A stretch of 64,000 nucleotides of DNA from Elusimicrobiota bacterium (lineage in GTDB: Bacteria > Elusimicrobiota > Elusimicrobia > Elusimicrobiales > UBA9959), in assembly GCA_030651035.1 (NCBI GenBank), contig JAUSCK010000173.1, positions 4,177 through 68,176 of the forward strand. The letters run 5' to 3'. Under the pieces are notes generated by a model. The model was not told where the DNA came from, ran no database searches, and saw only the letters and a list, made by a program, of their open reading frames with translations. Each line of letters opens with the position of its first letter. The stretch's first letter is position 1. Made by a program: the position numbers and the translations under genes. Shown piece after piece: positions 34,410-64,000 of the stretch.

Positions 34410-34805
34410 TCAGTGCGGTTTTCGTTTCAGGAGGTGTTTTTTTAAGGCCAGGACGGCGGCTTCAGTGCGCGAGCGGGCGCCGGTCTTTTCAAAAATGGAA
34501 CGGATATGGAACTGCACGGTGCGGTCCGAAATTTCAAGCCTGTAAGCGATCTCTTTGTTCGCGAGCCCCGCCACGATAAGCGACAGTATCTCAAGCTCCC
34601 GGGGCGTTAATGCGCCTGGCCCCTTCGGATCCCGGAGCGGCTCACCGGCGGGCTCGGAAAGCTCGTTCAGCGCGGCCCTGGATAACCGGCGCAGCTCATC
34701 CAGCGCGCGAAGCGCGGCGCTGTCCCCCCTGAAGGCGGACATATAAGCCTCAATTGCCGAATGCATCTCGCAAAGAGTCTTTTTCAGGTTATCGAGTCTG
34801 TCCAT
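34410..34805 (-). CDS. LuxR/GerE-family HTH regulator
   Basis: LTPRELEILSLIVAGLANKEIAYRLEISDRTVQFHIRSIFEKTG. Confidence 0.85.
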   Translation of the reverse strand: MDRLDNLKKTLCEMHSAIEAYMSAFRGDSAALRALDELRRLSRAALNELSEPAGEPLRDPKGPGALTPRELEILSLIVAGLANKEIAYRLEISDRTVQFHIRSIFEKTGARSRTEAAVLALKKHLLKRKPH

Positions 34806-37354: not shown

Positions 37355-38001
37355 TCTTCGGCCCTCGTGAAGACCACCGTGTCTCCGGGCTCTATGGTGT
37401 AAAGAAGTTCCGGCGAGGTCATGCCGAGTATGTTCCAGCCTCCGGGCGAAGTCTCCGGGTAGATGCCGGTCTGCTCGCCGCCTATGCCCACGGCGCCGGC
37501 CGGCACCGCCAGGCGCGGCGAGTCCAGCCGCGGCGTGACCAGGCTGCTGTCGAGGCCCAGCAGGTAGGGGAAATGGGGCCGGAAACCTATCATGGCCACC
37601 AGGTACTCGGGGGCGGTGTGGCGCCTTATAACCTCGTCCGGGGCGATCCCGGCGTGGTCCGCCACGCGCTGCAGGTCCTCGCCGTGGTAGGACACCGGCA
37701 GCACGTGCCGCACGGAGCGCTCCTTCAGACCGGCCTCGTCGGCGGGGATCGCGGCCAGGCAGCCGTCCACCAGGCGGCGCACCGCCTTCCAGTCGCAGAG
37801 CGGGTCGGCGTGGACAGCCAGGGCAGTATAGGAAGGAACCAGGTCGTGCACGCCCAGCCGCGCCAGCTCGCCGTTCTTCTTGAGCAGCCTGTAGACGTAA
37901 AGCACCTGCAGGGAGGTCAGCCGGTCTATGGCGTCCCCCAGCTCCCAGCAAAGGCAGGCGTCTCCGAGGAAATAGGTTTTGCAGGGTTTAACTGGGGGCA
38001 T
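37351..38001 (-). CDS. pxpB: 5-oxoprolinase subunit B (KipI/allophanate hydrolase subunit 1-like)
   Basis: ...AMIGFRPHFPYLLGLD...GGEQTGIYPETSPGGWNILG. TGATATAAT lies 9 nt upstream of the ATG. Confidence 0.85.
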   Translation of the reverse strand: MPPVKPCKTYFLGDACLCWELGDAIDRLTSLQVLYVYRLLKKNGELARLGVHDLVPSYTALAVHADPLCDWKAVRRLVDGCLAAIPADEAGLKERSVRHVLPVSYHGEDLQRVADHAGIAPDEVIRRHTAPEYLVAMIGFRPHFPYLLGLDSSLVTPRLDSPRLAVPAGAVGIGGEQTGIYPETSPGGWNILGMTSPELLYTIEPGDTVVFTRAEE

Positions 38002-38082
38002 GTTAAAACTATTATATCACTCGGCGGGCGATTAGTCTTATCTTCAATTTTAATCGCTGAATTTCAAGACCTGGCCCCCTAC

Positions 38083-41000
38083 TCACTCACCTGCTTTAGA
38101 TAAATATGGCCGGATAAAATCCCGCAACGACCGGCTGATTTCTTCACAGCTATTTCCCTCTAATAACGCGTCATGCCCGGCATCAATCTCCATCGTTTCT
38201 ATTTTACCTTTAATGTGGTTTAACCATTCACCGGAACTATCCTGCGCCATAGCTGAACCGGCCCTTTTCGCCCTAAAGATATAAGCATCAACACTTGCAA
38301 GTTTCGCCTTGTGTTGCGATACGGAATATACGATCGACAAATATATCTTTGCTAAATTAATTGCCTTTGCGAAATCGGCACCAGGACTCCGGGCCGAGAA
38401 GGCTTCGATTGAATCCAGTATCTCGCGGACTCTTAGCGCGCCTGTCGAAGCGGCGGATTTAATCGCGTTTGATAGCGATGAATAAAAATCTACGGTCCAA
38501 CGCGGGTCATTTAAGATGTCAGGAGAGAATTTAGACAGAGTTCCGGACATGGCGGCGAATAGACTCTGTATTGAAGCCGATTGAAGTACCGACGGGAGAA
38601 AGCTATCTATTAAAAACAAGGCCTTGGGTTGAATTGCCGTTCCCTGGGCCCGGGCTGCGATTTCATGGGCTATAACCCCGCCGGCGGAATAACCCAGTAA
38701 AACATACGGGGCTTCTTTGCATAATTTCCTGATTTCAGAAAGATAGTGCTCCGCATACTCGTCGATGCTCAGATAAGGAGTCCGGTCGCCAAAAAGCCCC
38801 GGGGCCTGGAACGCGTAAACGCGATAATGATCCGAAAGACTTACGGCCAGCTTTCGAAAAACGAATGGCATCCCCTCGGCGCCATGAACACATATGAGGT
38901 ATTGGCCTGGCCCCTCGATTGTAAGAGGGATCAAAGCGCCTCTTTCAGAGAAACATCCTCCTCCGGATTCCTCTATGGCCCCCGCAAAACGTTCTATTCC
39001 CGGGAATTCAAATAACATGCGCAATGAGATTCCAGGCCCGAAAAGTTTCCTGCATTGGCCGATCACCCTGATGGCCAGCAGCGAGTTCCCTCCGAGCTCG
39101 AAGAAACTTTCCGTCATGCTTATGCGCCCGATCCCCAGCACTTCTTTAATGATCTCGGATACCGCTTGTTCGGTCGGAGTGCGCGGAGCTATATAAGCCT
39201 TCTCTTTCGCCGTATAGTCCGGCGAGGGCAGCGCTTTCCGGTTTACTTTTCCATTGGCGTTCAATGGAAAGGAATCCATTGTTACGAACGCCGCGGGGAC
39301 CATGTAGTCAGGCAGTGACTTCAATAAGTGAGTCCGGAATTCCTTGATGTCCGGGACCGGGTCCGATTTGCATATGATGTATGCAACCAGATGCCGGTCG
39401 TCATACTGGCCGGCGCTTGCCACGACCAGGACTTCCTTTACCTTCGGATGCTCCGCCAACCGGAGTTCAATCTCGCCGGGCTCTATCCGGAAACCGCGGA
39501 TCTTTACCTGGGAATCGGCTCTGCCTATGAATTTAATATTGCCGTCGGGCAGCCACGCTCCCAGATCGCCTGTTTTATACAACCGGCCATTTTCTCTTTT
39601 GCAGAACGGGTCAGGGATAAACTTCTCGGCCGTTAAGTCGGGACGGTTTAAATAGCCTCGCGCGACTTGTCTGCCGCCAATGTGGATCTCCCCGGTCACG
39701 CCGATCGGCGTCGGCTGGTCATTTGAGTCAAGTATGTAAATCCGGACTTTTCTGATCGGCGTGCCTATCGGGACAATATCCTTCTCCGGCCGCCAATTTA
39801 CCGGGAACTTGAAAGCGGTCGCGCCTATTGTCGCCTCCGTCGGGCCATACAAATTGATCAGCGACGTAGTAGCGCCCCAGCGATCCAGCCAAAGTGTGAC
39901 TTTATTTAACTGCGCGGCTTCACCGGCTATGGAGACGGCTTTTAAAGCCGGCGGCATGGGCATTGATTGCCCGGCGATGGAGGTCACAAATTGATGCCAG
40001 TACGCCGTAGGGAGGAAAGTCTTAGTAATTCCCAGATCACAAAACCGTTTATGAAGGTCGACGGGGACCAGGGAGTCTCTGTCGCTCCGGATCGACAGCT
40101 TTGCCCCCGATATTAACGGCGGATAGATCTCAGGCCCTGCCCCGTCAAAACTTATGGATGAAAATTGGAACAGATGGTCCGAATCGGATAAATCGTAAAG
40201 ATCCACCACTTCCTGCATGTAGGCGGCCAAAGAGCCATGCTGTATCATTACGCCTTTGGGGCTTCCCGTAGATCCGGACGTGTAGATAACATAAGCGAGA
40301 TCCTTATCGCTCACTCCGGCCGCCGGGTTCGACACATTCTGCGCCGCCCACTGTTCTTTGTCCCGGTCCAGGCAAACGACCTGCGCGCCGGTATCCGGCA
40401 TTTTTGGCAGAAGCCGCTCCTGGGTCAAAAGCACCTTCACTTTTGAGTCCTCCAGCATGTACGCGATGCGGTCCGCGGGGTACGAAGCGTCTATTGGCAC
40501 ATAAGCCCCTCCCGCCTTAAGGACCGCAACCAGGCTTACGATCATCTCAAGGCTGCGCTCTACCGCTATCCCCACCAGCGATTCAGGACCTACCCCTAAA
40601 CTCTGCAGATGACGCGCCAACTGATTGGCGGACCTGTTCAGCTCATCATATGTCATTAACCGGTTATCCGAGATAATCGCGGTCGATCCTCCGGATTTTA
40701 AGACCTGCCGCTCAAACAGCTGATGCAGGCAAAGCCCCGCAGGATCGGAAGCCCCCGTATCATTAAAGTCCAGCAATACTTTTTGGCGCTCGCGGTCCGT
40801 CAGTAAACATGAATTCCCGATTGGCTGGCCAGGGTCCTTTACAATGGTATCCATGATCCGAATGTACAGCCTGCCGATATCTTCTATTTTCTCTGAACTA
40901 TAGCGCTTCGAATCGTATAACAGGCTCAAATTCAGCTTTCCCGTGCCGGCAGCGGCGAGGTCGAAACTTGCGGCAAACGGGAAATTAGCCCTGGTGAATG

Positions 41001-44000
41001 ACCGCTGATCACGTATCTTGAACTTAGGTAAATCTGACAGCTCTTCCAGAAGATGAAAATTCGTGAAATTAAAAAGCGTCTCAAAGGGCGGCTCTCCGTT
41101 ATTCAAACGCTGTATTTCGGCCAGGGGAAATCTTCTGTGGGGAAACATCTTCAGTTCCGCTTCGCTTACCTTTCGAATTAATTCCGTCCAGCTCCCCCCA
41201 TCCGATCTTACCCGGATAGGCACGCTGTTCAGGAACAGCCCCAGAACTTTGTCTCCGTCCGAAGCTTCAAGCCTTCCTGACGTGACCAGCCCTGTCGAGA
41301 TATCGGTCTCTCCTGACAAGTGAGCTATAGCGCAGACGTGGGCGGAAAGAAGCATTGTCTTCAAGCTGACTTGTAATGACTTAGCCCTGGCAAACAGCCC
41401 ATCGACCAACGGCTGCGGGATTACCGTGTTTACTTCTGAAAATTGGAACTTGGAAGTGCTGTTAACAGTATCGCCGGGTATTTTTGCGATAGAAGAGTTT
41501 TCACACACTCTTAGCCAGAACTTCCTGGTGTCGCTATTCTTCAGAGATCCGGTTTCCGCGCGGACAAAGTCCCGGAACTTGGATGCTGCCGGCGGCTCTA
41601 TGGGCAAGTCCCGATTCTCCAAAAGCCGCTGATATGTCCAAAACACTTCTACGCAGAGAGCGGAAAGACTCCATCCGTCAAGTATCGCGTGGTGATGCGG
41701 AACTGTCAGCTGAAAGCTGTTGGGAGTTCGAAGGTGAATGAGGAACCGGATGAGCGGTGGGCGGCTAATATCGAATAAGCGCTTTTTTTCCAGCTCGACA
41801 AGTTTGTTGATCCTGTTTTCCTGATCTTCAGGATCAAGTCCCGTCCAATCCGAGATCTCAAGCGGGATTTCCGTTCGAGAGTGGACCAGCTGAAGCGGCT
41901 CCGAGTAGGAGGTGAAGTCAAAAGACGTGCGGAGTACGGGATGGCGGGCGACGGTCCGTTTTAAGGTTTCTTTGAACAGCTCGAGATCAAGAGGCCCTTC
42001 AATATGTATTGAGTCGACATTCTGGTAAAGGGAAGAAGAGGGGTCAAGATCCAAATGAAAGACCATTCCTGATTGAAGCTGGGCCAAGGGATAGGCGTCT
42101 TCTATCCCGTTTGGCATGCGAGCCCGGGTCTCCTCATCAATGAGCTCAAAAGGCAAACTTTGCTTTTCACGCTCAGCCCCGGATATCTTGTTTTCACCGA
42201 TCGCGAGGGCAAGCTCAGAGATACTCTGATTCTTAAGGATCAGAGCAACCGTTACTGCCAGGCCCTGGTCCTGAGCAAGACCGGCTATCCGGAGAGTCCT
42301 GATCGAATCGCCTCCGATCGAAAAGATGTTGTCGAAGATCCCTATTTTGGGAAGGCCCAGGACTTGCTGCCAAATATTCAACAATCGCCTTTCGAGCTCC
42401 GTCCGCGGCGCCTCGTATTCATGAACGGTTTCCTGCAGGGAGGCGTCGGCGGCTTTCGGCAAGGCTTTGCGGTCTATTTTCCCATTGGATGAGAGCGGCA
42501 TGCTTTCAAGCACTATGTAAAGGGACGGCACCATATAAACCGGCACCCTGTCCGCTAAATGCCGGCTCATTTCCCGGGATGTTAAAGCAGCGCCTTTTTC
42601 GAACGTCACATAGGCTACAAGCCGCTTGGCACCAAGGTGATCTGTTTCCGCCGCGACAACGGCTTCCCGTACGCCGGAAATGCCCGTGAGTGTCGTTTCG
42701 ATCTCTCCCAGCTCGATGCGAAAGCCCCGGATCTTTACCTGAAAATCATTTCGGCCCAGGTATTCTATCGCTCCGGCCGGCAAAAATCTCGCCAGGTCGC
42801 CTGTCCTGTAAAGCACCCCGGTTTTCTTGAACGGGTCGGGGATGAACTTTTCCGCCGTTAGCGCCGGACGGTTAAGATAGCCTTTGGCGACACCCACGCC
42901 TCCGATATAAAGTTCCCCATGGACGCCGACAGGTACGGGATGTTTCCGTTTGTCTAAAATATAGATCTGGGTGTTGGCGATCGGCCGCCCGATCGGCAGT
43001 ATCCGGCGGCCGTCCGGATCCTCTTGGGAACAGTCCCAATAGGTGACATCGACCGACGCTTCGGTAGGACCATAGAGGTTATGCAGTTTCACTTCCGGGA
43101 AATTGGCGATAAAACGGTCTTTTAACTCGTATGGCAACGCTTCCCCGCTGACAAATACAAGCCGTAAGTTTTGCAGTTCATGCCCTTTGGAAAACTCGAC
43201 AAAGATCTGCAGCATGGAAGGAACAAAATGCAGGACCGTTACTCGTTCGGTTTGAATAATCGTGTCCAGATAAATGTTGTCCGTATGGCCCAAGGGTCTG
43301 GCTATGACCAATTTGGAACCGGACATCAACGGCCAAAATAGTTCCCAGATAGAGACATCGAACGATAGCGGCGTTTTTTGCAGGATCCGGTCTTCATAAG
43401 TAAGCTGATACTCGGATTGCATCCAAAGCAACCTGTTTCGCAACCCGCCGTGATGAACCCTGACACCCTTCGGCCTGCCGGTAGTCCCGGACGTATAAAT
43501 AATATACGCAAGATCATCGTCAGCCAAAGAGACCGGTTCCGCCGGGGTGATACCGGTTTTCCAGGCATCGTCGTCCAACACTACCAACTTCCCGGCAAAA
43601 TCTGTTAAAGAGGCGGCCCATTTTGTTTGTGAAACGATCACCGGGAACGCGCAGTCCTCTATCATGAAATCGATCCGGTCTTTTGGCAAAGCCGGGTCCA
43701 ACGGGACGTACGCTCCGCCGGCTTTAAGGATGCCGAGCACGGCGACCATTAAGTCTTTGCACCGTTCGCCATGGTATCCGACGGGGCTGCCGCGCTGGAC
43801 GCCGCTTTTGGTCAGCCGCGCGGCGAACAGCGAGGACAAGCGGTCAAGTTCCCCATAGCTGTAGTTTTCACCTTCAAAAACCGTCGCCCCGGCGCTGGGC
43901 CGGATCCGCGCCTGGGACGCGAAGCAGTCCAGGATGCACCGTTCGCCGGTAAAAACCGTATCCGTGGAATTAAATGACCGGGTGATCTTGTAATATTCTT

Positions 44001-45435
44001 TTTCAGTGAGCAGCGGGAGCTCTTCTACCCGGGCCGTCAGATCGGAGTGCATGCTTTCCAGCAAGTTAATGTAGCTCCCGGCCATCCGTTCTATCGTTGA
44101 ACTATCAAACAGGCTGGTACTGTATTCAAACGAGGCGTCGACTCCGTCCGTCCCCTGGAGCAGATCAAGCTCCAGGTCAGCTTTAGTGGTGCGGCTTACG
44201 GCCGGCAGGGGCGAAATATCCAGCCCGCTCATTTTTATAGCGGAGCCGGGTGATACCTGGTAATTGAATAGAACCTGGAACACCGGCATCTTACTGGGAT
44301 CACGGACGGGATTAAGCGCCCTGACGACAAGTTCGAACGGGCAATCCTGGTATTCGAGGGCATTAAGAATTCTTTCCCTGGAACTATCCAGCGCCGCTTG
44401 TACCGTCATGTCATCCGTAAAATCAGCGCGTACGGCTACCGGATTAATTAATGGCCCGATGATCCGCTCTGTCCCTTTCAGGCCCCTGTTCGCGGAGGGA
44501 ATGCCGACCGCGAAGGTGTTTTGATCTGTATATCTATGAAGTAATATTTGAAATCCGGTAAAAAAAACGCCAAATGGAGTAGCTCCCGCTTTCTGTCCGG
44601 ATAATGCCAGCGCCCGGACAAGTGATTGCGGGAGTTTAAAGTTGAAACGGTTCCCCGCGGTCGATAGCTTCGCCGGACGCGGGAAATCAACGGGAAGTTC
44701 CAGTGACTCGGTCCTGTGTAATTCTTTTTGCCAGTAAGTCAGGTGTGAGGCCCAGGAATTCTCGGCCAAGCGCCGGTGCTGCCAATTAGCGAACTCTGAA
44801 AGCTGACGCCCCGCTTGCGGCAGGTCAGGCGCGCGCCGGCTTAGAAAAGCATTATAGGATTCGGCTATTTCCTCTAAAAATACATAAAAAGACCAGCCGT
44901 CAGAGATCAGGTGGTGCATTACTATGTGTAAAAAAGCGGAATTCTCCGAGTTATTGAAGACGAATATCCGGGCAAGCGGGGCCAGGCCCAGATCGAAGGT
45001 CCTTTGCGTTTCTTCCAGCATGCGGGCATTGATAGTCTCCTCGCCAGTTTGCCCGGGATGATCTTCTATGGCGGCTGAAAGCCTTACAACTTCCTGCAGC
45101 TCGGGACGCCAAATTCCCCGTTCATTGAAAAAAGCCGTCCTAAAAGCTTCATGCCGTGCGGCCACGTTCTGTATCGCGAGATTTAAGGCCTCAATATCCA
45201 GTTTGCCGTTGAGCCGGAGAGATACGGGAATATTGTAGGAAGCGTTCCCCGGGTTCAGGCTTTCCGAGAAACAGATCTGCTCCTGCATAAAGCAAAGTTT
45301 TGGGCGGCCGCTCTTAAGCGGGGTTCCGTCCAGGCCTGGATTCCTCCGCTCGCCGGATTTCTTCGCGCGCAGCAGTTCGAAGAGTTTCTGCTTCTCTTTG
45401 CTTAGCGATTTAAAACGGTCGGCTTTGTCGGGCAT
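38083..45435 (-). CDS. NRPS, two modules plus thioesterase: C-A-T-C-A-T-TE
   Basis: The C domains have HHLISDGWS and HHHAILDGWS. The A domains have YTSGTTGRPKG/NLYGPTE and YTSGSTGSPKG/NLYGPTE. The T domains have GGDSIRT and GGNSLLA. The TE has GYSAGG. Start taken at ATG 45435, 1 nt after the upstream TAA. Confidence 0.93.
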   Translation of the reverse strand: MPDKADRFKSLSKEKQKLFELLRAKKSGERRNPGLDGTPLKSGRPKLCFMQEQICFSESLNPGNASYNIPVSLRLNGKLDIEALNLAIQNVAARHEAFRTAFFNERGIWRPELQEVVRLSAAIEDHPGQTGEETINARMLEETQRTFDLGLAPLARIFVFNNSENSAFLHIVMHHLISDGWSFYVFLEEIAESYNAFLSRRAPDLPQAGRQLSEFANWQHRRLAENSWASHLTYWQKELHRTESLELPVDFPRPAKLSTAGNRFNFKLPQSLVRALALSGQKAGATPFGVFFTGFQILLHRYTDQNTFAVGIPSANRGLKGTERIIGPLINPVAVRADFTDDMTVQAALDSSRERILNALEYQDCPFELVVRALNPVRDPSKMPVFQVLFNYQVSPGSAIKMSGLDISPLPAVSRTTKADLELDLLQGTDGVDASFEYSTSLFDSSTIERMAGSYINLLESMHSDLTARVEELPLLTEKEYYKITRSFNSTDTVFTGERCILDCFASQARIRPSAGATVFEGENYSYGELDRLSSLFAARLTKSGVQRGSPVGYHGERCKDLMVAVLGILKAGGAYVPLDPALPKDRIDFMIEDCAFPVIVSQTKWAASLTDFAGKLVVLDDDAWKTGITPAEPVSLADDDLAYIIYTSGTTGRPKGVRVHHGGLRNRLLWMQSEYQLTYEDRILQKTPLSFDVSIWELFWPLMSGSKLVIARPLGHTDNIYLDTIIQTERVTVLHFVPSMLQIFVEFSKGHELQNLRLVFVSGEALPYELKDRFIANFPEVKLHNLYGPTEASVDVTYWDCSQEDPDGRRILPIGRPIANTQIYILDKRKHPVPVGVHGELYIGGVGVAKGYLNRPALTAEKFIPDPFKKTGVLYRTGDLARFLPAGAIEYLGRNDFQVKIRGFRIELGEIETTLTGISGVREAVVAAETDHLGAKRLVAYVTFEKGAALTSREMSRHLADRVPVYMVPSLYIVLESMPLSSNGKIDRKALPKAADASLQETVHEYEAPRTELERRLLNIWQQVLGLPKIGIFDNIFSIGGDSIRTLRIAGLAQDQGLAVTVALILKNQSISELALAIGENKISGAEREKQSLPFELIDEETRARMPNGIEDAYPLAQLQSGMVFHLDLDPSSSLYQNVDSIHIEGPLDLELFKETLKRTVARHPVLRTSFDFTSYSEPLQLVHSRTEIPLEISDWTGLDPEDQENRINKLVELEKKRLFDISRPPLIRFLIHLRTPNSFQLTVPHHHAILDGWSLSALCVEVFWTYQRLLENRDLPIEPPAASKFRDFVRAETGSLKNSDTRKFWLRVCENSSIAKIPGDTVNSTSKFQFSEVNTVIPQPLVDGLFARAKSLQVSLKTMLLSAHVCAIAHLSGETDISTGLVTSGRLEASDGDKVLGLFLNSVPIRVRSDGGSWTELIRKVSEAELKMFPHRRFPLAEIQRLNNGEPPFETLFNFTNFHLLEELSDLPKFKIRDQRSFTRANFPFAASFDLAAAGTGKLNLSLLYDSKRYSSEKIEDIGRLYIRIMDTIVKDPGQPIGNSCLLTDRERQKVLLDFNDTGASDPAGLCLHQLFERQVLKSGGSTAIISDNRLMTYDELNRSANQLARHLQSLGVGPESLVGIAVERSLEMIVSLVAVLKAGGAYVPIDASYPADRIAYMLEDSKVKVLLTQERLLPKMPDTGAQVVCLDRDKEQWAAQNVSNPAAGVSDKDLAYVIYTSGSTGSPKGVMIQHGSLAAYMQEVVDLYDLSDSDHLFQFSSISFDGAGPEIYPPLISGAKLSIRSDRDSLVPVDLHKRFCDLGITKTFLPTAYWHQFVTSIAGQSMPMPPALKAVSIAGEAAQLNKVTLWLDRWGATTSLINLYGPTEATIGATAFKFPVNWRPEKDIVPIGTPIRKVRIYILDSNDQPTPIGVTGEIHIGGRQVARGYLNRPDLTAEKFIPDPFCKRENGRLYKTGDLGAWLPDGNIKFIGRADSQVKIRGFRIEPGEIELRLAEHPKVKEVLVVASAGQYDDRHLVAYIICKSDPVPDIKEFRTHLLKSLPDYMVPAAFVTMDSFPLNANGKVNRKALPSPDYTAKEKAYIAPRTPTEQAVSEIIKEVLGIGRISMTESFFELGGNSLLAIRVIGQCRKLFGPGISLRMLFEFPGIERFAGAIEESGGGCFSERGALIPLTIEGPGQYLICVHGAEGMPFVFRKLAVSLSDHYRVYAFQAPGLFGDRTPYLSIDEYAEHYLSEIRKLCKEAPYVLLGYSAGGVIAHEIAARAQGTAIQPKALFLIDSFLPSVLQSASIQSLFAAMSGTLSKFSPDILNDPRWTVDFYSSLSNAIKSAASTGALRVREILDSIEAFSARSPGADFAKAINLAKIYLSIVYSVSQHKAKLASVDAYIFRAKRAGSAMAQDSSGEWLNHIKGKIETMEIDAGHDALLEGNSCEEISRSLRDFIRPYLSKAGE

Positions 45436-45436
45436 T

Positions 45437-53773: not shown

Positions 53774-53934
53774 GAGCCAATTCTCAGGTTGTGCTTTCCG
53801 ATCTGAAGTCGATCACCGCAAAATGGTTAATTTGGCCGTTTCAATTATGCTATTTTATAATGATATGTAATTTTAGTAAATATAGAGTTCTATAGAGAAA
53901 TAGAAGTTGAAATCTCCCGATTAAAAAGGGGCCT

Positions 53935-56427: not shown

Positions 56428-56789
56428 AGGTTATTCTCGCAAGAACGGCGCAGCTTTTCACGGCGGCTTTTGGCGACTGCCTGTTAGGCTTCTCCGGCAT
56501 AGCCGTTTTCGGCTTCCTGACCTGCTTTATGTGGTCATATAGAGACCGCAATTCAAGATCAGTGCTCTGGACTTCTATCGGCGCCGGCGGCTGGTCCCTC
56601 GCTTTATGTCTTCCTCCGGCTATGGGGGCAGACCGGCTAATTGCCGCCAAAACCGCTTCCGCCTTCGGCTTACCAAGCGCTATCCTCCTGGTGTTCGTGA
56701 CCTTGATATATATTATGGCGCTCTCCGCGTCCGCCGGGATGGCAGGCGCGCGATTTGGCCGTTTATCGGCCGGCGGGCTGAAAAAATGA
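56424..56789 (+). CDS. Small polytopic membrane protein (unknown function), translationally coupled on both sides
   Basis: 121 aa with 3-4 hydrophobic helices. There are ATGA overlaps with the acylase stop (56424-56427) and with the FAAL-NRPS start (56786-56789). Confidence 0.6.
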   Translation: MKVILARTAQLFTAAFGDCLLGFSGIAVFGFLTCFMWSYRDRNSRSVLWTSIGAGGWSLALCLPPAMGADRLIAAKTASAFGLPSAILLVFVTLIYIMALSASAGMAGARFGRLSAGGLKK

Positions 56790-59700
56790 CGGATAATAAA
56801 TTCAGGAAACACATCGGTCTTATTAAAGGATCCAAGTCGCTAGCCGACATAGGCCGTCACTATGCCAAAACACAGGGGTCGGCGACGGCTTTCACCTTTC
56901 TTGGAAAAGATGACGGCGATAATCAGAGTCTCGATTACGCTGCGGTCGACCTGCGCGCCCGCGCGATAGCGGCCTCCCTGAGCTGCTCGATGCATAAAGG
57001 CGAGCGGGCTTTATTATTGTACCCGCCGGGCCTTGGATTTGTCGAAGCGTTCTTAGGATGCATTTATGCCGGTATTATCGCGGTGCCTGCCTATTTGCCT
57101 CAAAAAAGAAAAGAGCACTGGCAGCGTCTCGCTCTTATCTCCCGAACGGCCGAAGTCCGCGCCGTCCTTACTTCAAGATCCGTAACTTCAGATTGGGATA
57201 AAACCCCGGAAATAGCGGCAATGTTCGAAGCGTGCCAGCTCATTGCAACGGACTCCATCGGTCCTTCGCCGGCGTCTTCATGGAATTATCCTGACGTAGA
57301 GCCGACTGACCTGGCTTTCCTGCAATTCACATCGGGCTCGACCGGCGATCCCAAGGGCGTCATGGTCAGCCATAAAGCGCTACTGAGCAATGAATTGATG
57401 ATAGCGGATTCTTTTGGGAACGATGACGGCCTTGTGACGGCCGGCTGGCTTCCGCTCTATCACGATATGGGATTGATCGGGAATGTCCTGCAGCCGTTCT
57501 GCCTTGGCGGTCACTCGGTGAACATGTCCCCGGTGTCTTTCCTCCAAAGTCCCATTACCTGGCTTTCAATGATCTCTAAATTCGGCGCTACAACAAGCGG
57601 AGCCCCGAATTTTGCTTATGACCTGTGCGTTCTCCGGATAACCGATGAACAAATGTCCGGCTTGGACCTAAGCAAGTGGACTATCGCATTTAATGGGGCG
57701 GAACCCATACGGGCGGAGACCTTAAAGCGCTTCAGCGAAAAATTTGCGCCCTGCGGCTTTTCCAAAGAATCGTTTTTTCCCTGCTACGGCCTCGCCGAAG
57801 CGACCCTCCTCGTATCCGGCGGCCCGGTACGAAGGGAGTATCGCCGGCTCATGCTGGACGGGAAGGCCCTTGAGCGGAATAAAATAGAACTATCGGACAC
57901 GGCCGGCAAAGATACGCGGACGCTGGTCAGTTCCGGACGGGTCGTTCCGGGCCAGCAGCTTGCCATCGTGGACCCGGAGCACCTGACCAGATGTCCTTCC
58001 CGAACGGTCGGCGAGATCTGGCTGAAGAGTCCAAGCGCGGCCAGGGGGTATTGGAACCAGGCTGAGGCGACCCGAAGGACTTTCCAGGCCGATATTCCAG
58101 GCGAAAGCGGAGCTCATTATTTACGCACCGGCGACCTTGGTTTCATCCATGAGAACGACCTTTACATCTCCGGCAGATTAAAGGATATGATCATTATCCG
58201 CGGACGGAATATTTATCCGCAGGATATCGAGGCCGCTGTTCAAAGCTCGCATCCGGCATTCAGAGCCGGCGGCGGCGCCGCTTTCTCGATCGACCATGAC
58301 AACGAGGAGAAATTAATTATCGTTCAGGAAGTTGAACGCACGCAGGCCAGGAGCCTTGATAAAGAGGGCGCCGCGCGCATAATAGCGCAGGCGATCGGAG
58401 AAGCGTTCGGCATCCAGGTCCACGATGTCATGCTCATCCGGCATGGCACCTTAGTGAAAACCTCGAGCGGGAAGATCGAACATCGCACGTGTAAGCGCAA
58501 GTACCTAGAGAGCGGGCTGGTCCTCCAGTATCCAAAAGTTGTCCCGCCTAAAATTGCCGAAACCGCACCGCCGCCCGGGGATCCGCTCGATCAGCTAAGG
58601 CACATGGCGGCCAGTATACTTAAGGTCCGCCCCGAATCAATTGATCCATCCGTGTCGCTGATAGCTTATGGACTTGATTCCCTGGCGACGCTGGCCATGC
58701 AGCACGCTCTTGAATTGGAATTCACCGTAAAAATTCCCGCTGATAAAATGTTCTCCGGTCCCAGCCTTAATTCCATAGCTGAACTCCTGGCCCTTCAGGC
58801 GCCGGCACATCCGCGGAAAGACAGCGGCGACAGGGAACCCTCGGAAAAGGCCCCCCGCAGCGCTGAGGACGGACAAGAGCCCGTGCGGACGGGTCTTGCG
58901 CTTAATCAAAAAGCGCTCTGGACACTTTACCAGCTGGATCCGACGAGTTCCGCGTATAATGTAGCGGCCGCTATCCGTTTTGACGAATCGCTGGATGAGG
59001 GCCGGCTTAAAGCCGCTTTTTATGAAGTAATACGGCGTCACGAGAGCTTGCGCGCGGTATTTGACGCGACCGATGATCAGCCTGCGCAGTCCTTCGTTCA
59101 GGAGAATCCGCGGGCATTCAGCTGGGTGAGAGTTGTTAATGAAGCTGAATCTTTTTTTTCCGAGAGGATAGGCCTTTGCGCGAAAGAGCCTTTCGACCTG
59201 AAGTCGGGACCGGCCTTCCGGGCCACTTTATTCGAAAACATCGGCCATTACAGCGTGATGCTGATCTCCGCGCACCATCTTGTGATCGATCTCTGGTCGA
59301 TGGTCCAGATCATAGAGGAGCTCGCTATAATTTATTCAGGCGGCGATCTGAGCGGCCGCCCTCCCCCGCGCCCCTACGCGGATTTCGTCGCTTTGTCAGA
59401 GCGCCGGATGAAAGATCCCGGTTTTAAAGCTCAATGGAACTATTGGGAAGGCCAGCTTTCAGGTCCGTTGCCTGTGCTGACGCTTCCGACAGACCGGCCA
59501 AGGCCGCGGTTCCAGAGTTTCGCGGGGGAAAGCATCGTCCTTAAAGTCGGCGCTGATACCGCGGAAAAAGTGAACGCTCTCGCTAAAAAAGAAAACTGCA
59601 CTCCCTTCACACTGCTGCTTGCCGGATATCTGGCGCTCCTTCATCGCTACACGGGAGAAACTGATATCTGCGTCGGGTGCCCCACGGCGGGGCGGCCCGA

Positions 59701-62224
59701 TGAAAGTTTCGCCTCGACCATAGGGTACTTTGTAAACCCGCTGGTTATCCGCAGCCGGCCCTCTTCGGAAATACGGTTTAAAGATTATCTGGGCCAGGTT
59801 AAAGATCTTGTCAGCGGAGCTCTGGCAAATGCCGATATCCCGATACAGGGGCTTGTCGAGCGTTTGTCAATAACGCGCGATCCCGCGATACCACAGCTGT
59901 TCCAGACGATCTTCACGCTGAAGCGCGCGCACCGTCTTGCGAATGTCGACGGTTTTATCGCCGGAGATCCCAAGGTCGTCACTAAGATCGGGGATCTCAC
60001 GCTGCGGTATTATCCGCTGCCGTGCCTCGGCTCCCAGGTCGATCTCTCGATGACGGTGGTCGAAGCTGATAACACGTTTTCCATACATATCGAATTCAAC
60101 CCGGAGCTGTTCAATGAAGCTACGATAAGAAGGTTCGGCCGACACTACGGCATGATCCTGCGTTCGATAGTCGCGGACCCCGCCGCAAGGCTCGGGCAAC
60201 TCGCGCTCATGGACAAGGAGGAGAGGGCTTTTGTGGGCGGTTCTACGGTTCTTCCCAAAAGCGAGCGGCAAGGCTGCCTCCATACTTTATTCGAACGGCA
60301 GGCGGGCGTTCAGCCTGCCGCTGCGGCGCTTCGCTCTCCGGGGGTAGAGCTGACCTATTCGGAATTGAACGGCCGGGCCAATCGTATGGCTCATTGCCTG
60401 CTTAAGCTGCGGCTGAACAGAGCGCGGCCAGTCGTCGTTATGACCGACGACCAGGTATTCCAGATCGAAACTATTTTAGGAACTCTAAAGGCCGGGCACT
60501 TTTTTCTTTGCCTGGACCCTGCCCACCCCCCTTTGCGGATCGACCAGATCTTTTCAGCTTCCGCACCGGCGGTAATAGTGGCGGACCGGGCCGCGTTCGA
60601 CCTGCACAGATCAGTTTTTGACGGTCAGATAAGAAATGGCTGCAAAGTGGTGGTGCTGGGTGTTAAGATAGAGGTCATATCGAATGATCCCGCATCTGAT
60701 ATTTATGACAGAAGCGAATTCCCAACGGGGGATCCTGACTGCGGGATAACCGAGACTTCGCCCGCTTACCTGGTTTACACCTCGGGGTCAACGGGTGCCC
60801 CGAAAGGAATTGTTCAGTCGCACCGTTCATTTGTGCAGTTCCTTAATTGGCAGATCCGCACGTTCGGAATGCGGAAAGGCGAGCGGATAGCTAATTGGTC
60901 TTCTATCGTCTACGACGCCTCCTATTGCGAGATCTTCGGGGCCCTGGGGTCCGGAGCGGCGCTTTGCATGACGTCCCCCTCCGTCCGGTATAACCCGATA
61001 GAGCTTCTTCGCTGGATCCATAAGGAACAAATTTCAATATTCCAGACCGTGCCGAGCTTTTTCAGCTCCATTCTCCAGACAATTGAGAATGAATCAGCGG
61101 CTGACCGGCAATTCGAAAGCCTGAAGCATATTATGCTTGCGGGGGAAGAACTTCGCTCCGATCTAATCCGGGCCTGGCGGCGCAGGTTCGGTCATAAAAC
61201 AGCGCTTTGGAACCTGTATGGCCCTACTGAGAGCGTCCTCGCCACTTATTATCCCGTGAAAGATATTCAGCCTAATCAGTGGTCGGTCCCGATCGGCCGG
61301 GAGATCGAAGGCCGGCAGATCCTAATTATAGACCCCAGGGGGGAGCTCTGTCCTGTCGGTGTACCGGGAGAAATCTTTATCCGCAGCCAATATCTAGCCA
61401 TGGGCTATTTTAAGGACCCGGCCCGGACCGCTGATTCATTTCTGGCGAATCCGTTAACAAGCGACCTTAGCGACCTGGTTTTCCGAACCCGCGATTGCGC
61501 CAGGTGGCTGGAGGACGGGACGGTTGAATTCCGCGGCCGATCGGACGGGCAGCTGAAGATACGCGGCATGCGCGTGGAGACCGGTGAAATTGAAGCTCAA
61601 CTGAGCCGCTATCCCGGGGTTTCGGACGCGGCGGTCACCGCGGCCCGGGATGAAAGCGGCGAGTCCCGGCTTGTCGCCTACCTGGTCGCAACGGGGAAGG
61701 TCGATGCGCTCATGCTCAAAGAATTCCTGAGACCGGCGCTGCCCAGCTACATGCTGCCTGAATTTGTCATACAGCTTGAGCGGCTTCCCCGCACAGCGAC
61801 CAACAAGGTCGACAGGAGGGCCTTGCCGAAGCCTGATTTAAAACGACAAATTCATGACGGCCCCCCGGCGCAGCTGAACGAACTCGAGCAGCAGCTGGCA
61901 ACGATCTGGCGCGATCTGCTCAAAATAGATTCGTTTGATGTCCGGAATAGTTTTTTTGATCTCGGAGGACATTCTTTGCTGGCGACCCGTCTTATAAATA
62001 AAGTCCGCCTGGATTTTGGCGTGGAAATTTCACTCAAGGATTTCTTTTATCGGCCTACTTTTCAGGGGATGGCCGAAGCGATCCAGGTATTCCGGTCGGA
62101 ACAAACCGACAAGGGAAAAGCTCTGCTGGCCATTGTAGAGCAGATAGAAAGAATGTCCGATTCCGAGGTTCTGACCCGGCTTGAGCAAATCAGAATTAAT
62201 TCCAGAAGGAAGTCCACGGCATGA
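56786..62224 (+). CDS. Lipoinitiation NRPS: FAAL - ACP - C(starter-type) - A - T
   Basis: Start at ATG 56786 (MTDNKFRKH...). The FAAL domain has FTSGSTGDPKGV and GRLKDMIIIRGRNIYPQDIE. It is followed by ACP (GLDSLAT), C (HHLVIDLWS), A (YTSGSTGAPKG, NLYGPTE), T (GGHSLLA) and a C-terminal docking-like helix. Confidence 0.92.
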   Translation: MTDNKFRKHIGLIKGSKSLADIGRHYAKTQGSATAFTFLGKDDGDNQSLDYAAVDLRARAIAASLSCSMHKGERALLLYPPGLGFVEAFLGCIYAGIIAVPAYLPQKRKEHWQRLALISRTAEVRAVLTSRSVTSDWDKTPEIAAMFEACQLIATDSIGPSPASSWNYPDVEPTDLAFLQFTSGSTGDPKGVMVSHKALLSNELMIADSFGNDDGLVTAGWLPLYHDMGLIGNVLQPFCLGGHSVNMSPVSFLQSPITWLSMISKFGATTSGAPNFAYDLCVLRITDEQMSGLDLSKWTIAFNGAEPIRAETLKRFSEKFAPCGFSKESFFPCYGLAEATLLVSGGPVRREYRRLMLDGKALERNKIELSDTAGKDTRTLVSSGRVVPGQQLAIVDPEHLTRCPSRTVGEIWLKSPSAARGYWNQAEATRRTFQADIPGESGAHYLRTGDLGFIHENDLYISGRLKDMIIIRGRNIYPQDIEAAVQSSHPAFRAGGGAAFSIDHDNEEKLIIVQEVERTQARSLDKEGAARIIAQAIGEAFGIQVHDVMLIRHGTLVKTSSGKIEHRTCKRKYLESGLVLQYPKVVPPKIAETAPPPGDPLDQLRHMAASILKVRPESIDPSVSLIAYGLDSLATLAMQHALELEFTVKIPADKMFSGPSLNSIAELLALQAPAHPRKDSGDREPSEKAPRSAEDGQEPVRTGLALNQKALWTLYQLDPTSSAYNVAAAIRFDESLDEGRLKAAFYEVIRRHESLRAVFDATDDQPAQSFVQENPRAFSWVRVVNEAESFFSERIGLCAKEPFDLKSGPAFRATLFENIGHYSVMLISAHHLVIDLWSMVQIIEELAIIYSGGDLSGRPPPRPYADFVALSERRMKDPGFKAQWNYWEGQLSGPLPVLTLPTDRPRPRFQSFAGESIVLKVGADTAEKVNALAKKENCTPFTLLLAGYLALLHRYTGETDICVGCPTAGRPDESFASTIGYFVNPLVIRSRPSSEIRFKDYLGQVKDLVSGALANADIPIQGLVERLSITRDPAIPQLFQTIFTLKRAHRLANVDGFIAGDPKVVTKIGDLTLRYYPLPCLGSQVDLSMTVVEADNTFSIHIEFNPELFNEATIRRFGRHYGMILRSIVADPAARLGQLALMDKEERAFVGGSTVLPKSERQGCLHTLFERQAGVQPAAAALRSPGVELTYSELNGRANRMAHCLLKLRLNRARPVVVMTDDQVFQIETILGTLKAGHFFLCLDPAHPPLRIDQIFSASAPAVIVADRAAFDLHRSVFDGQIRNGCKVVVLGVKIEVISNDPASDIYDRSEFPTGDPDCGITETSPAYLVYTSGSTGAPKGIVQSHRSFVQFLNWQIRTFGMRKGERIANWSSIVYDASYCEIFGALGSGAALCMTSPSVRYNPIELLRWIHKEQISIFQTVPSFFSSILQTIENESAADRQFESLKHIMLAGEELRSDLIRAWRRRFGHKTALWNLYGPTESVLATYYPVKDIQPNQWSVPIGREIEGRQILIIDPRGELCPVGVPGEIFIRSQYLAMGYFKDPARTADSFLANPLTSDLSDLVFRTRDCARWLEDGTVEFRGRSDGQLKIRGMRVETGEIEAQLSRYPGVSDAAVTAARDESGESRLVAYLVATGKVDALMLKEFLRPALPSYMLPEFVIQLERLPRTATNKVDRRALPKPDLKRQIHDGPPAQLNELEQQLATIWRDLLKIDSFDVRNSFFDLGGHSLLATRLINKVRLDFGVEISLKDFFYRPTFQGMAEAIQVFRSEQTDKGKALLAIVEQIERMSDSEVLTRLEQIRINSRRKSTA

Positions 62225-62466
62225 AATTCCGGCTGCTCCAGGCAAGCTATGCGGGGGCAGATCTTTCCGACGGGGTCGCAGTTGCGGCCTTCTTCTGTTT
62301 GCTGGCGCAAAGCGGGAACTGTCATGCAGGCAGGCCGTCTTATAAGAGCCGGCACCCTTAACCTCCCTGAACAAGGATGACCCCGGACAAATTTGTTAAA
62401 ATCTAGAAGGCAGGAAGCTGCTGCAGCACTGCCCTGATTTTACACAGAACATCATCACAGAACAAA

Positions 62467-63987
62467 ATGACAATGACCTCGACCCACGTGATCACCGATA
62501 AGTTCTATACCCTTGACGAATTCAGGATGCTTTTGGAGACCAGGCCGAAATTATCCCTGGCGCCGGAGGTCCTCGCCGCGATCGACGCCGGCGCCCGGTT
62601 CGTAGAAAACAAGTCTAAAGAGGACATCCATATTTACGGCGTTAACACCGGGTATGGCTCTCTCTGCGAGACACGCGTCGCCCCGGATCAGCTGGACGCG
62701 CTTCAGTACAAACATGTAATGTCCCACGCCTGCGGCGTCGGTGAACCTGCCTCCGAAGAGGTTGTCCGCCTGATGCTCCTCATCAAGATCCTTACGTTCC
62801 GGACCGGGGTAACGGGTGTATCACGCGAACCGGTGGAGCGTTTTATCGAATTCTGGAACGCCGGCGTAATTCCCGTGGTCCCCAAAAAAGGGACTGTCGG
62901 TGCAAGCGGCGACCTTGCTCCGCTCGCCCATCTTGCTTTGCCTCTTTTAGGGCTTGGAAAAGTGCATTTCAAGGGTAAAGCAGTCGATTCGGCCGAGGTG
63001 CTGAAAATACACGGCTGGCGGCCTATCAAGCTTAAGCCTAAGGAAGGGCTGGCACTGACGAACGGAGTGCAATACATTAACGCTATGGCCATTCATAGCT
63101 TGCTCCGCATAGAGGAATATGTCCGAGCCGCCGATTTCCTCGCAGCCCTTAGCATACAGGGATTCAGCGCGTCCAAGACGTTCTATCAAAGCCTCTATAT
63201 TAAAACGTCTTTGCACCCGGAGAGATTGACGGTCGCCGAGAACCTCCAGTTCCTCCTTGAAGGCAGCAACCATTATGATCTGCCCACCTGCAATAAATCA
63301 AAGCAGGATCCTTATTCGTTCCGCTGTATTCCGCAGGTCCACGGCGCCATCCGGCAAACTTACGGACACGCGAAGCTGATCATGGAACGGGAGTGCAATG
63401 GCGTTTCCGATAATCCCCTCTTTTTCCCTGAACAGGGGGAGATACTTTTTGGCGGCCATCTTCACGGAGAGTCTACGGCCTTTGTTCTGGATTTTTTAGC
63501 GATCGCGCTCAGCGAGCTGTCCAATATTTCCGAGCGGCGTTCGTACCAGATGCTTTCCGGTCAGCGCGGCTTGCCCAGTTTTCTCATTCAAAATCCGGGT
63601 CTTGATTCCGGGTTAATGGTCGTGCAGTATTCCGCCGCGGCCCTCCTGAACGAGAATAAAGTCCTCTCAACACCGGCGAGCATTGATACGATTCCGACCT
63701 GCCAGCTGCAGGAGGATTCGGTCAGTATGGGAGGGACCGCGGGCTATAAGCTTTGGCAGATCGCCGAAAACTGTGAAGTCATCTTCGCGATAGAATTGCT
63801 CATCGCCTGCCAGGCCATTGACATGAACAAGGCGATAAAACTCTCGCCAAGGACCCGCGCAGCTCACGAAGCGTTTCGGAAAGTCGTGCCTTTTCTAAAC
63901 GAGGACAGGATCATGTCCGACGATATCGATAAGGCGAAAGAGTTTTTCGGCAAAATGCGCCGCGTGTGGCGCGATGAGCTCAAATGA
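62467..63987 (+). CDS. MIO-dependent aromatic amino acid ammonia-lyase/aminomutase family (histidine ammonia-lyase-like)
   Basis: 506 aa. It has the MIO precursor motif GTVGASGDLAPLAHL, plus YGVNTGYGSL and SHACGVG. Confidence 0.88.
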   Translation: MTMTSTHVITDKFYTLDEFRMLLETRPKLSLAPEVLAAIDAGARFVENKSKEDIHIYGVNTGYGSLCETRVAPDQLDALQYKHVMSHACGVGEPASEEVVRLMLLIKILTFRTGVTGVSREPVERFIEFWNAGVIPVVPKKGTVGASGDLAPLAHLALPLLGLGKVHFKGKAVDSAEVLKIHGWRPIKLKPKEGLALTNGVQYINAMAIHSLLRIEEYVRAADFLAALSIQGFSASKTFYQSLYIKTSLHPERLTVAENLQFLLEGSNHYDLPTCNKSKQDPYSFRCIPQVHGAIRQTYGHAKLIMERECNGVSDNPLFFPEQGEILFGGHLHGESTAFVLDFLAIALSELSNISERRSYQMLSGQRGLPSFLIQNPGLDSGLMVVQYSAAALLNENKVLSTPASIDTIPTCQLQEDSVSMGGTAGYKLWQIAENCEVIFAIELLIACQAIDMNKAIKLSPRTRAAHEAFRKVVPFLNEDRIMSDDIDKAKEFFGKMRRVWRDELK

Positions 63988-64000
63988 GCGGCCTGGCAGG

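Follow-up and report, generated by a model that had tools for sequence, protein, structure and literature searches.

Enzymes that carry the 4-methylideneimidazole-5-one (MIO) group have entered the service of nonribosomal peptide synthetases (NRPSs) more than once: SgcC4/SgcC1 of C-1027, CmdF of chondramide and AdmH of andrimid are all pairings of an MIO aminomutase with an NRPS. In the habitasporin pathway, too, the MIO aminomutase HabB is encoded beside its NRPS (PMC9802438). A different use is found in the imidacins, where urocanate derived from a histidine ammonia-lyase (HAL) is the starter of the assembly line (PMC11301661); the gene for that lyase lies far away from the imidacin cluster, and what the lyase supplies is an acid starter. 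Here we consider a 64,000-nucleotide stretch of an Elusimicrobiota metagenome-assembled genome (MAG), which we call the window and which is part of a 74,553-bp contig, and, within it, an NRPS cluster at positions 38,083 to 63,987 that accounts for 26 kb, on the left side, of an island about 30 kb long. In this cluster, an MIO gene lies directly downstream of a synthetase that starts with a fatty acid, and we argue that the MIO enzyme and the first amino acid-activating domain of that synthetase form a cassette. This cassette is what we regard as the most important content of the cluster, as it is widespread in many unrelated bacteria and may point to an undescribed amino-acid-rearranging activity. 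We know of almost no NRPS chemistry described from the Elusimicrobiota.

An earlier, sequence-only reading of the window placed six genes here and described a five-module lipoinitiated NRPS with divergent operons; the genes lie where it put them, and the gene and domain map supports the description. The list of open reading frames (ORFs) was checked against the NCBI gene calls of the same contig (MDO8805002-MDO8805008), and the two agree, with those calls refining the starts of nrpsC (45435), the acylase gene (54016), nrpsA (56786) and the MIO gene (62473). The features are these, with the evidence for each in parentheses (C, condensation; A, adenylation; T, carrier; E, epimerization; TE, thioesterase; GC3, GC content at third codon positions; Ntn, N-terminal nucleophile):

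38002..38082, no strand: left island border, the 81-bp spacer between pxpB and the nrpsC stop (GC/GC3 step)
38083..45435, minus strand: nrpsC, MDO8805003.1, 2450 aa (Pfam, domain map, codes, T/TE motifs, gene call)
45437..53773, minus strand: nrpsB, MDO8805004.1, 2778 aa (Pfam, domain map, codes)
50384..51676, minus strand: methyltransferase (MT) within the module-2 A domain of nrpsB (Pfam Methyltransf_12/23/31; motif ILEIGCGTG)
52973..53773, minus strand: first 267 aa of nrpsB, corresponding to the C-terminal half of a C domain (Pfam Condensation, E=1.2e-17)
53774..54015, no strand: presumed divergent promoter region between nrpsB and the acylase operon (position only)
54016..56427, plus strand: predicted secreted Ntn-hydrolase acylase, MDO8805005.1, 803 aa (ORF opening at 53935)
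56424..56789, plus strand: predicted 121-aa membrane protein (hydrophobic stretches; conserved position)
56786..62224, plus strand: nrpsA, MDO8805007.1, 1812 aa (Pfam, PDB matches, C motifs, code)
60290..61822, plus strand: module-1 A domain of nrpsA (code)
62473..63987, plus strand: HAL-type MIO enzyme, MDO8805008.1, 504 aa (PF00221, NCBIfam, pocket residues)
63984..64000, plus strand: first 17 bases of the gene for a free-standing C domain (497 aa), which then runs off the window (continuation on contig L023)

The junctions are tight. The nrpsC ATG at 45435 lies one base past the nrpsB stop, with a Shine-Dalgarno-like AAGAGGA upstream; the acylase gene and the 121-aa gene overlap as ATGA, as do the 121-aa gene and nrpsA, which points to translational coupling; and the ATG of the free-standing C gene (63984) overlaps the MIO stop, again as ATGA.

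What kind of MIO enzyme is this? It belongs to the MIO family (PF00221, 1.5e-161), as the sequence-only reading had it, and we can add that by its pocket and by family models it is HAL-type, not of the tyrosine or phenylalanine aminomutase (TAM/PAM) type. It is about 40% identical to the HAL of P. putida, HutH (1B8F/1GKM), and compared with 1GKM it keeps the ASG triad along with Y53, S82-H83, N195, Q277, Y280, R283 and E414, that is, every catalytic and substrate residue of HAL, while F329 has become L. Among the NCBIfam models, it passes that of the HAL subfamily (NF006871, 548.5 against a cut-off of 524) and misses those of the hutH equivalog (TIGR01225, 524.1 against 539.15) and of the two aminomutase equivalogs (TAM, TIGR03832, 349.8, below 501; PAM, TIGR04475, 316.2, below 800). 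Unlike HutH, however, it falls in a separate clade marked by I55V, T197V and F329L, and it has an NRPS context instead of a hut operon: no hut genes are nearby, and the MIO gene sits between an NRPS gene and the free-standing C gene. The three changes adjoin the catalytic apparatus (I55V by Y53, T197V by N195 and F329L within the active-site motif GGNFHG). V55, V197 and L329 are fixed across the 133 sequences of the clade, whereas ordinary HALs (65 loci) have I, T and F in 94-100%; members of the clade are 57-91% identical to each other and at most 46% identical to ordinary HALs.

The clade also keeps its own company. In a scan of JGI metagenomes, the relatives fell into two groups, one of 15 loci at 57-68% identity and one of 65 loci at 46% or less. 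In the upper group, 12 of the 15 loci, each with more than 3.6 kb of sequence, have an NRPS-type match on the same contig (the other three contigs are shorter than 3.5 kb), and in 11 of those 12, NRPS C or A domains adjoin the MIO gene; L035 offers no more than a weak A/FAAL-like gene (FAAL, fatty acyl-AMP ligase) about 6.5 kb away. Of the ordinary-HAL loci of at least 10 kb, none of 31 has NRPS neighbors, and one has a weak acyl-ligase-like match. Homologues from the clade also stand in NRPS or polyketide synthase (PKS) clusters in three cultured strains, Stigmatella sp. ncwal1, Polyangium sp. 6x1 and Allonocardiopsis opalescens. A housekeeping hutH that happens to lie beside the cluster was considered and set aside, given that the MIO gene is kept with the C and aminoglycoside phosphotransferase (APH)-like genes in four loci, that its GC3 is of the island type and that its clade is NRPS-linked.

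The neighboring A domain recurs as well. Apart from the window, 11 loci with GC contents from 0.37 to 0.76 have, next to the MIO gene, an A domain with a rare code of the form D[AV][CG]Q..[LVI][LA]A, and L024 is a twelfth locus with the code, on a contig that stops before any MIO gene. (Labels L001-L107 denote loci or contigs retrieved as relatives from Logan, ENA, JGI metagenomes and genomes.) Codes were taken from a MAFFT alignment to GrsA, which as reference returns DAWTIAAICK at positions 235-331 and 517; over their first nine positions they read:

DACQMALLA: window, L002, L005, L024, L031
DACQLALLA: L030, L032, L033, L089, Polyangium L107
DACQLVLLA: L027
DAGQLALLA: L036
DVCQMVVAA: L037
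DVCQAVIAA: Allonocardiopsis L106

Codes of this D[AV][CG]Q type are found in 0 of the 116 next-best FAAL-NRPS homologues. Most often, a synthetase that ends in the A(DACQ)-T pair is followed by the MIO gene and then by a gene that opens with C, and the order in the window (nrpsA, MIO gene, free-standing C gene) is the same.

In A domains, D235 and K517 bind the amino and carboxyl groups of the amino acid substrate. Because the module-1 A domain of nrpsA keeps both, its substrate should be an amino acid, and the most economical reading of the pairing is that this domain loads the product of the MIO enzyme, the product itself being an amino acid. That is, because the paired A domain takes an amino acid, the MIO enzyme would be an aminomutase, and, by its pocket, one that acts on histidine. 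The sequence-only reading had left module 1 unassigned; its code, DACQMALLAK, was correct, and we can add that the domain is specifically tied to the MIO gene across loci. We offer the wider proposal, that the MIO enzymes of this clade may be histidine 2,3-aminomutases and the DACQ[M/L]ALLAK A domains β-histidine-loading modules, tentatively, thinking it somewhat likelier to fail than to hold.

The plainest competitor takes the pocket at its word. Here the MIO enzyme is an ordinary HAL that has been recruited to the cluster and makes urocanate, for use as an acyl building block or in some other way, and module 1 takes some unrelated amino acid; the complete set of HAL residues and the NF006871 score fit this, and the imidacins provide the precedent for a urocanate starter (PMC11301661). 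The cluster, however, contains no acid-type A domain lacking D235, and its sole acid activator is a long-chain FAAL. Nor does an ordinary lyase explain why D235 and K517 are retained in the A domain that accompanies the MIO gene at 11 other loci, which makes that domain one of the amino acid type, or fit with the fixed clade changes beside the catalytic residues, the score below the hutH cut-off and the want of hut genes nearby. We consider such a recruited lyase unlikely. A variant in which the FAAL would activate urocanate was rejected, as the domain is a canonical long-chain FAAL.

The aminomutase reading has company in the HabB/HabA-type pairs, which likewise have an MIO gene beside the module that uses its product and an A domain with an unusual code. 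They differ from the window in that their enzymes are Tyr- or Phe-type (with an H-L or F-L switch), whereas the window enzyme has S-H, the form that this selectivity switch takes in HAL, together with E414. Whether a histidine aminomutase exists is a question from the MIO literature, and the cassette makes it directly testable; Polyangium sp. 6x1 (GCA_029946515.1) and Allonocardiopsis opalescens (GCA_003002095.1) are cultured carriers. If such an activity is real, peptides containing β-histidine would be made by the Elusimicrobiota/Parachlamydiaceae cluster and by a large number of NRPS clusters from soil, myxobacteria and actinobacteria; β-histidine to our knowledge is not an established building block of natural products.

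Several of the related loci carry features of their own. In L031 (11519-16855) and L089 (11926-17109), the NRPS after the MIO gene opens with the DACQ-type A domain as an initiation module, and the second A domain has no D235 (VAWLTSLSN and VAWATSLSN), which suggests a substrate other than an α-amino acid for these second domains. In Polyangium sp. 6x1, the C-A(DACQLALLA)-T gene is separated from the MIO gene by a gene of the Asp/Arg β-hydroxylase family (PF05118; L107, 9211-9933), with a PKS and a FAAL-NRPS nearby, and Stigmatella sp. ncwal1 (L025) has a similar PKS-MIO-NRPS neighborhood. L004, from a genome with a GC content of 0.35, encodes a 71%-identical MIO homologue (with T at HAL position 416) that is not NRPS-linked and has EamA, S-Me-THD, hydantoinase, LRR and F-box genes as neighbors; it may stand at the margin of the clade, where the link to NRPSs ends.

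Pfam domain matches in the cluster have E-values from 1e-24 to 1e-169, and internal domain mapping gives nrpsA as FAAL-ACP-C-A-T (ACP, acyl carrier protein), nrpsB as C'-A(MT)-T-E-C-A-T and nrpsC as C-A-T-C-A-T-TE, the very orders that the sequence-only reading had proposed. Each of the six carrier domains contains the Ser motif for phosphopantetheine, which in the ACP is GLDSL at residue 688 of nrpsA, so that lipoinitiation has what it needs there, a FAAL domain followed by a carrier with its Ser attachment site. The TE of nrpsC has a GYSAG motif. Modules 1, 3, 4 and 5 are complete C-A-T units with catalytic motifs, and module 2 is without a catalytic C in cis; motifs of the HHxxxD type are present in the starter C of nrpsA (HHLVIDL), the E of nrpsB (HHLVADA) and the C that follows it (HHLILDG). 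The FAAL matches PDB 7R7E at 4.5e-165, with 3KXW, FadD32, FadD23 and FadD28 among its further matches, and by these likenesses it is a canonical long-chain fatty acyl-AMP ligase. The five codes and the residues they indicate are as follows:

Module 1, nrpsA: DACQMALLAK, D235 and K517 kept (X1)
Module 2, nrpsB, with MT inserted: DVWHISLIDK, Ser
Module 3, nrpsB: DLTKVGEVGK, Asn
Module 4, nrpsC: DVWHFSLVDK, Ser
Module 5, nrpsC: DGPFSALIGK (X5)

The codes that had been derived by hand for modules 1-4 come back identical from the GrsA alignment, and for module 5 the reading DGPTSALIGK was off by one at position 278, T277 having been taken for F278. As a whole, then, what had been observed is confirmed with one code residue corrected, and what had been made of it is partly supported. 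The assignment of Ser, Asn and Ser to modules 2-4 holds: DLTKVGEVGK stands for Asn in the classical code, and DVWHFSLVDK is identical to the Ser code of EntF (PMC3795760). Neither DACQMALLAK nor DGPFSALIGK occurs in the searchable literature, and a search for codes of the SgcC1 type was also without a characterized match. The apparent closeness of the module-1 A domain to the Gly module of LgrA (1.8e-141) is an artefact, two A-domain matches of a dimodular chain having been summed. The T domain of module 4 (nrpsC residues 1059-1064, about 42.2 kb) has a GGDSI core, and yet a C domain comes next; such a core is more typical of carriers before E domains.

Module 2 poses the one mechanical puzzle. 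The C' that the sequence-only reading saw at the start of nrpsB is there, but it is half a domain, covering only positions 191-451 of the 456 in Pfam Condensation and lacking HHxxxDG, and the complete C that could stand in for it is encoded past the window end, out of that reading's view. Because C' lacks the catalytic histidines, module 2 would be without a condensation catalyst of its own; and because module 2 holds only this catalytically dead half, the free-standing C encoded after the MIO gene most likely performs the module-2 condensation in trans. That protein matches Pfam at 3.1e-92 over model positions 4-442 with its HHIITD motif intact, is closest (30.6% identity) to the LCL-like C1 of nrpsC and sits where the module-2 C stands in related loci. 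One might object that the assembly line is simply broken at the truncated C and that the cluster is a decaying relic, since nrpsB does begin with the C-terminal half of a C domain devoid of HHxxxDG and a related locus (L024) shows degenerate fragments after nrpsA. But the ORFs are intact over 26 kb, the catalytic motifs of the remaining domains are complete, the L005 and L002 orthologues begin with the same truncation, at about 45-56% identity, and the complete free-standing C is kept in the family at 50-52% identity, all of which make decay very improbable. If the trans condensation is as we picture it, a dead half C together with a conserved complete C elsewhere would be a natural example of some use for NRPS engineering.

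The MT and the E of module 2 are both found by Pfam and domain mapping, as the sequence-only reading said. The MT is inserted after motif A8 (GRIDHQIKI, residue 659) and before A10 (PLSPNGKIDR, residue 1156), and it matches PDB 5WMM, the interrupted A domain of TioS that methylates backbone nitrogen, at E=3.3e-48 over 320 residues; this similarity favors N-methyl-Ser over O-methyl-Ser for the module-2 residue. In both systems (that of TioS being A4-M4-A4), the MT interrupts the A domain at a late point and an MbtH partner is encoded nearby; here, unlike in TioS, the interrupted domain is specific for Ser, and T-E comes after it. The Parachlamydiaceae orthologue has no insert: its nrpsB (L005, 2448-9563) aligns to residues 7-708 and 1110-2777 of the window protein, with a gap of about 400 aa at the MT between them. 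In L002 and L003, a separate methyltransferase gene, fused to MbtH or adjoining it, is present in place of the insert.

At the other end of the pathway stands the acylase, and with it the question of whether the fatty acid stays. The protein is a Penicil_amidase (PF01804, 1.8e-162) whose best PDB match is the D-succinylase 7EA4 (2.9e-38), followed by penicillin G acylases; its matches at 1e-10 or better also include glutaryl-7-ACA/cephalosporin acylases, and none is named PvdQ. In alignments, its GIG|SNAW falls at residue 1 of solved beta chains, which indicates a Ser nucleophile, and by these comparisons the protein has an Ntn-hydrolase fold with an autoproteolytic Ser; a hydrophobic N-terminal segment resembles an export signal. 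The name “PvdQ-like” has to go, as the score against the PvdQ equivalog is 35.2 bits where the cut-off is 950 (NF051460), and the enzyme is therefore not a PvdQ orthologue. The 121-aa protein is strongly hydrophobic over two stretches (residues 10-39 and 72-109) and has no family match in Pfam or NCBIfam; orthologues of equal size and place are found in L002 and L024, and L005 has a similar ORF (30-35% identity where measured). The order acylase, 121-aa gene, FAAL-NRPS is kept in four of four family members. Telomycin, with Tem25, follows a logic of acylation and then deacylation, and PvdL/PvdQ of pyoverdine is like the window in starting with an acyl-adenylating domain, a carrier and C-A-T to build an N-acylated peptide and in having, within the cluster, a secreted Ntn acylase proposed to deacylate. 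The likeness to pyoverdine stops at the orthology of the acylase, at the lack here of chromophore and hydroxamate genes and at the sharing of one operon by the acylase, the 121-aa membrane protein and the FAAL-NRPS. We think that the acylase, once secreted, probably strips the acyl chain after export.

Perhaps the chain is retained instead, making the product a true lipopeptide, with the acylase directed at foreign N-acyl compounds or serving recycling or immunity. An acylase that is no PvdQ orthologue and whose nearest structures are D-succinylase and penicillin G acylases would suit such a role, as would an island in which we see no dedicated exporter; set against it are the translational coupling of the acylase gene, the 121-aa gene and nrpsA, the constancy of that gene order in the family and the export-signal-like segment. 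Retention strikes us as doubtful, if less so than the recruited lyase above. The resemblance to pyoverdine also invites the thought of an acyl-peptide siderophore, matured by the acylase as in pyoverdine or marinobactin and re-imported by an OPT transporter; lipoinitiation with a periplasmic acylase, an EntF-type Ser code and an OPT gene flanking the island all recall one. The island, however, is devoid of tailoring genes for catechol, hydroxamate or β-hydroxy-Asp/His groups, a TonB-type receptor is lacking and the OPT gene, with a GC3 of 0.85, is native and outside the island, so that a siderophore is scarcely to be expected.

Putting these parts together, we can sketch how the cluster might work. 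The FAAL of nrpsA would adenylate a long-chain fatty acid and load it on the ACP, and the starter C would N-acylate X1 on T1. X1, activated by the DACQMALLAK A domain, would be supplied by the MIO enzyme encoded directly downstream; most likely it would be a histidine-derived β-amino acid made in a 2,3-aminomutase reaction, possibly β-histidine. The free-standing C would then join acyl-X1-S-T1 to Ser-S-T2 in trans, module 2 would N-methylate and epimerize its Ser, and the C after E, followed by modules 3-5, would add Asn, Ser and X5. The TE would release acyl-X1-(N-Me-D-Ser)-Asn-Ser-X5, linear or cyclized, with MbtH and a phosphopantetheinyl transferase (PPTase), both encoded just past the window, serving the A and T domains. 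After export, the signal-bearing acylase would most likely remove the acyl chain, in a maturation of the pyoverdine or telomycin kind, and the APH-like kinase would probably phosphorylate the peptide or its precursor for self-protection, by analogy with the kinases of peptide antibiotics (Vph/Cph, ComG of corramycin). The APH-like protein keeps a catalytic loop (HGDFRAxN) and a metal-binding motif (IIDWS) in four orthologues, and its PDB matches are marginal kinase matches only (E of about 0.6).

How far should this sketch be trusted? We hold the scheme as a whole, an acylated X1-(N-Me-D-Ser)-Asn-Ser-X5 with X1 derived from the MIO enzyme and the acyl chain later removed, to be evenly poised between right and wrong, because a good deal weighs against it. 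The retention of every HAL residue and the passing of the HAL subfamily cut-off fit a plain lyase, and we know of no sequence signature that reliably tells lyases from mutases. DACQMALLAK presumably resembles the β-tyrosine code of SgcC1, and the searchable literature offers the code no characterized match. In the motif of the free-standing C, N replaces the usual G (HHIITDN), other substrates are conceivable for the acylase and the island of this genome contains no exporter, the neighboring OPT gene having a native GC3 (0.85). The product has never been observed, and the host is uncultured. Finally, no MIO enzyme is known as a histidine aminomutase, and there is no genomic evidence for one (review, PMC9002059); our own literature search for β-histidine, histidine aminomutase and urocanoyl peptides likewise found no characterized match.

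The cluster has few relatives. A search of 5.8 billion protein clusters for orthologues of nrpsA found only three, at 51-52% identity, all others being at 39% or less and of different architecture. These, with one partial locus, are:

L005/L001: 2.26-Mb contig CBDAUP010000002.1 of a Parachlamydiaceae MAG, GC 0.38
L002: 39-kb Logan contig, GC 0.40
L024: 10.7-kb ENA contig, degenerate fragments after nrpsA
L003: partial locus, MIO-C-APH-MbtH

Identities to the window are 55% for the acylase, 30-35% for the 121-aa protein, 50-52% for the FAAL-NRPS, 45-56% for nrpsB (truncated N-terminus included), 76-79% for the MIO enzyme, 50-52% for the free-standing C, 41-44% for the APH-like protein and 60-63% for MbtH. 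The family shares with the window the acylase, the 121-aa protein, FAAL-ACP-C-A(DACQMALLA)-T, C'-A(Ser)-T-E-C-A-T, MIO-C-APH (in that order wherever the region is held) and MbtH; it differs in GC content, 0.32-0.40 against 0.54 in the window cluster. In the Parachlamydiaceae cluster, MIO-C-APH comes after nrpsC, not after nrpsA, and the terminal synthetase has an extra module and other codes, whereas L002 differs from the window by an extra exporter of the major facilitator superfamily (MFS) and an MbtH-methyltransferase fusion. The three-module terminal synthetase of L001 (2-9952) has consecutive A codes DAGFIGLVI and DAGLI-LVI against the single DGPFSALIG of the window, and because these terminal codes differ, the C-terminal residues of the peptides should differ within the family.

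At only about 50% identity, the chlamydial lineage is, on this comparison, not a recent donor. The presence of a Parachlamydiaceae MAG among the relatives nonetheless hints at gene flow among bacteria living in or around protists. The literature on NRPSs in chlamydiae and Elusimicrobia that we found consists of general surveys, which mention NRPS-like clusters and not this one. The sequence-only reading did not recognize the product, and an orphan it remains; the relatives are all uncharacterized. Lipopeptide synthetase clusters without a known product are common; this one, of the lipoinitiated type, was horizontally acquired and belongs to a very small family spread across phyla.

That it was acquired had been suggested from a drop in base composition at about 38.05 kb, and the drop is reproduced both in 200-nt windows, where GC goes from 0.63-0.73 (37.0-37.9 kb) to 0.44-0.51 (37.9-38.7 kb), and in GC3 gene by gene, from 0.853 in pxpB to 0.592 in nrpsC; it is the left edge of the island. 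The island, which spans about 38.08 to about 68.1 kb on the parent contig, has a compositional border on each side: PGM, SSB and pxpB have GC3 values of 0.82-0.89, the ten genes from nrpsC through the PPTase gene have 0.51-0.65 and the OPT gene has 0.85. The two-sided step in GC3, the native-looking flanks and the patchy distribution across phyla are the grounds on which horizontal acquisition, and with it a genomic island, is supported. As to the flanks, PGM (phosphoglucomutase, 26054-27691; 100% identical to MDO8804989.1) has as its next matches proteins 80-90% identical and labeled Elusimicrobia. At the island ends, we found no tRNA, no direct repeat of 10 bp or more shared between the borders and, in Pfam scans, no integrase.

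The right part of the island was seen through L023, a Logan contig that encodes an identical MIO protein and is 100% identical to the window over 62402-64000 (1.6 kb). Downstream of the MIO gene, it continues with the free-standing C, the APH-like kinase, MbtH (1.2e-17), an Sfp-type PPTase (4PPT_N/ACPS, 6.5e-18) and the end of the OPT transporter gene. The earlier remark that no PPTase, MbtH or exporter is visible is thus true inside the window, but MbtH and the PPTase lie 4-4.1 kb past its end, an edge effect, because the window end cuts the cluster; inspection past 64 kb, which that reading had recommended for export and tailoring genes, turned up the C, kinase, MbtH and PPTase genes and no exporter in the island. 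An exact 42-mer from the window end has no match in JGI metagenomes. The interval between the PPTase gene and the convergent OPT gene (L023 10641-10763, about 68.1 kb of the parent contig) contains a GC-rich hairpin with a T-run (CACCCCCGATGAAAGATCGGGGGGGTTTATTTTT), and this looks like a bidirectional intrinsic terminator at the right border of the island.

The rest of the window holds some features apart from the cluster. A dense island of defense-type genes occupies 820-15554 on the minus strand, with two HNH/REase-like genes, a PDC-S41 candidate (930 bits; Schlafen group-3 helicase), a Schlafen AlbA_2 protein, a helicase/S24-peptidase protein, SbcC (with SbcD just beyond, at 15788-16966), a DUF4062/HATPase_c_4 protein of weak pAgo-associated (SIR2-PNTD) similarity and a PDC-S01 AAA_14/DUF4143 ATPase; at about 3-6 kb, there is a patch of low GC (0.41-0.46). 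Closer to the cluster, a 730-aa ORF (35759-37951, minus strand) has LamB/YcsF (pxpA) and CT_A_B (pxpC) matches in one frame, being either a fused pxpA-pxpC or two genes with no stop between them, and pxpB (37351-38001) comes after it. At 33271-34805 (minus strand), a TadA/VirB11-like secretion ATPase (weak, 71 bits) adjoins a small LuxR-type HTH protein, both intermediate in GC3 (0.69-0.70), and the SSB gene lies at 35186-35662; these might be what is left of a conjugative or pilus apparatus close to the island.

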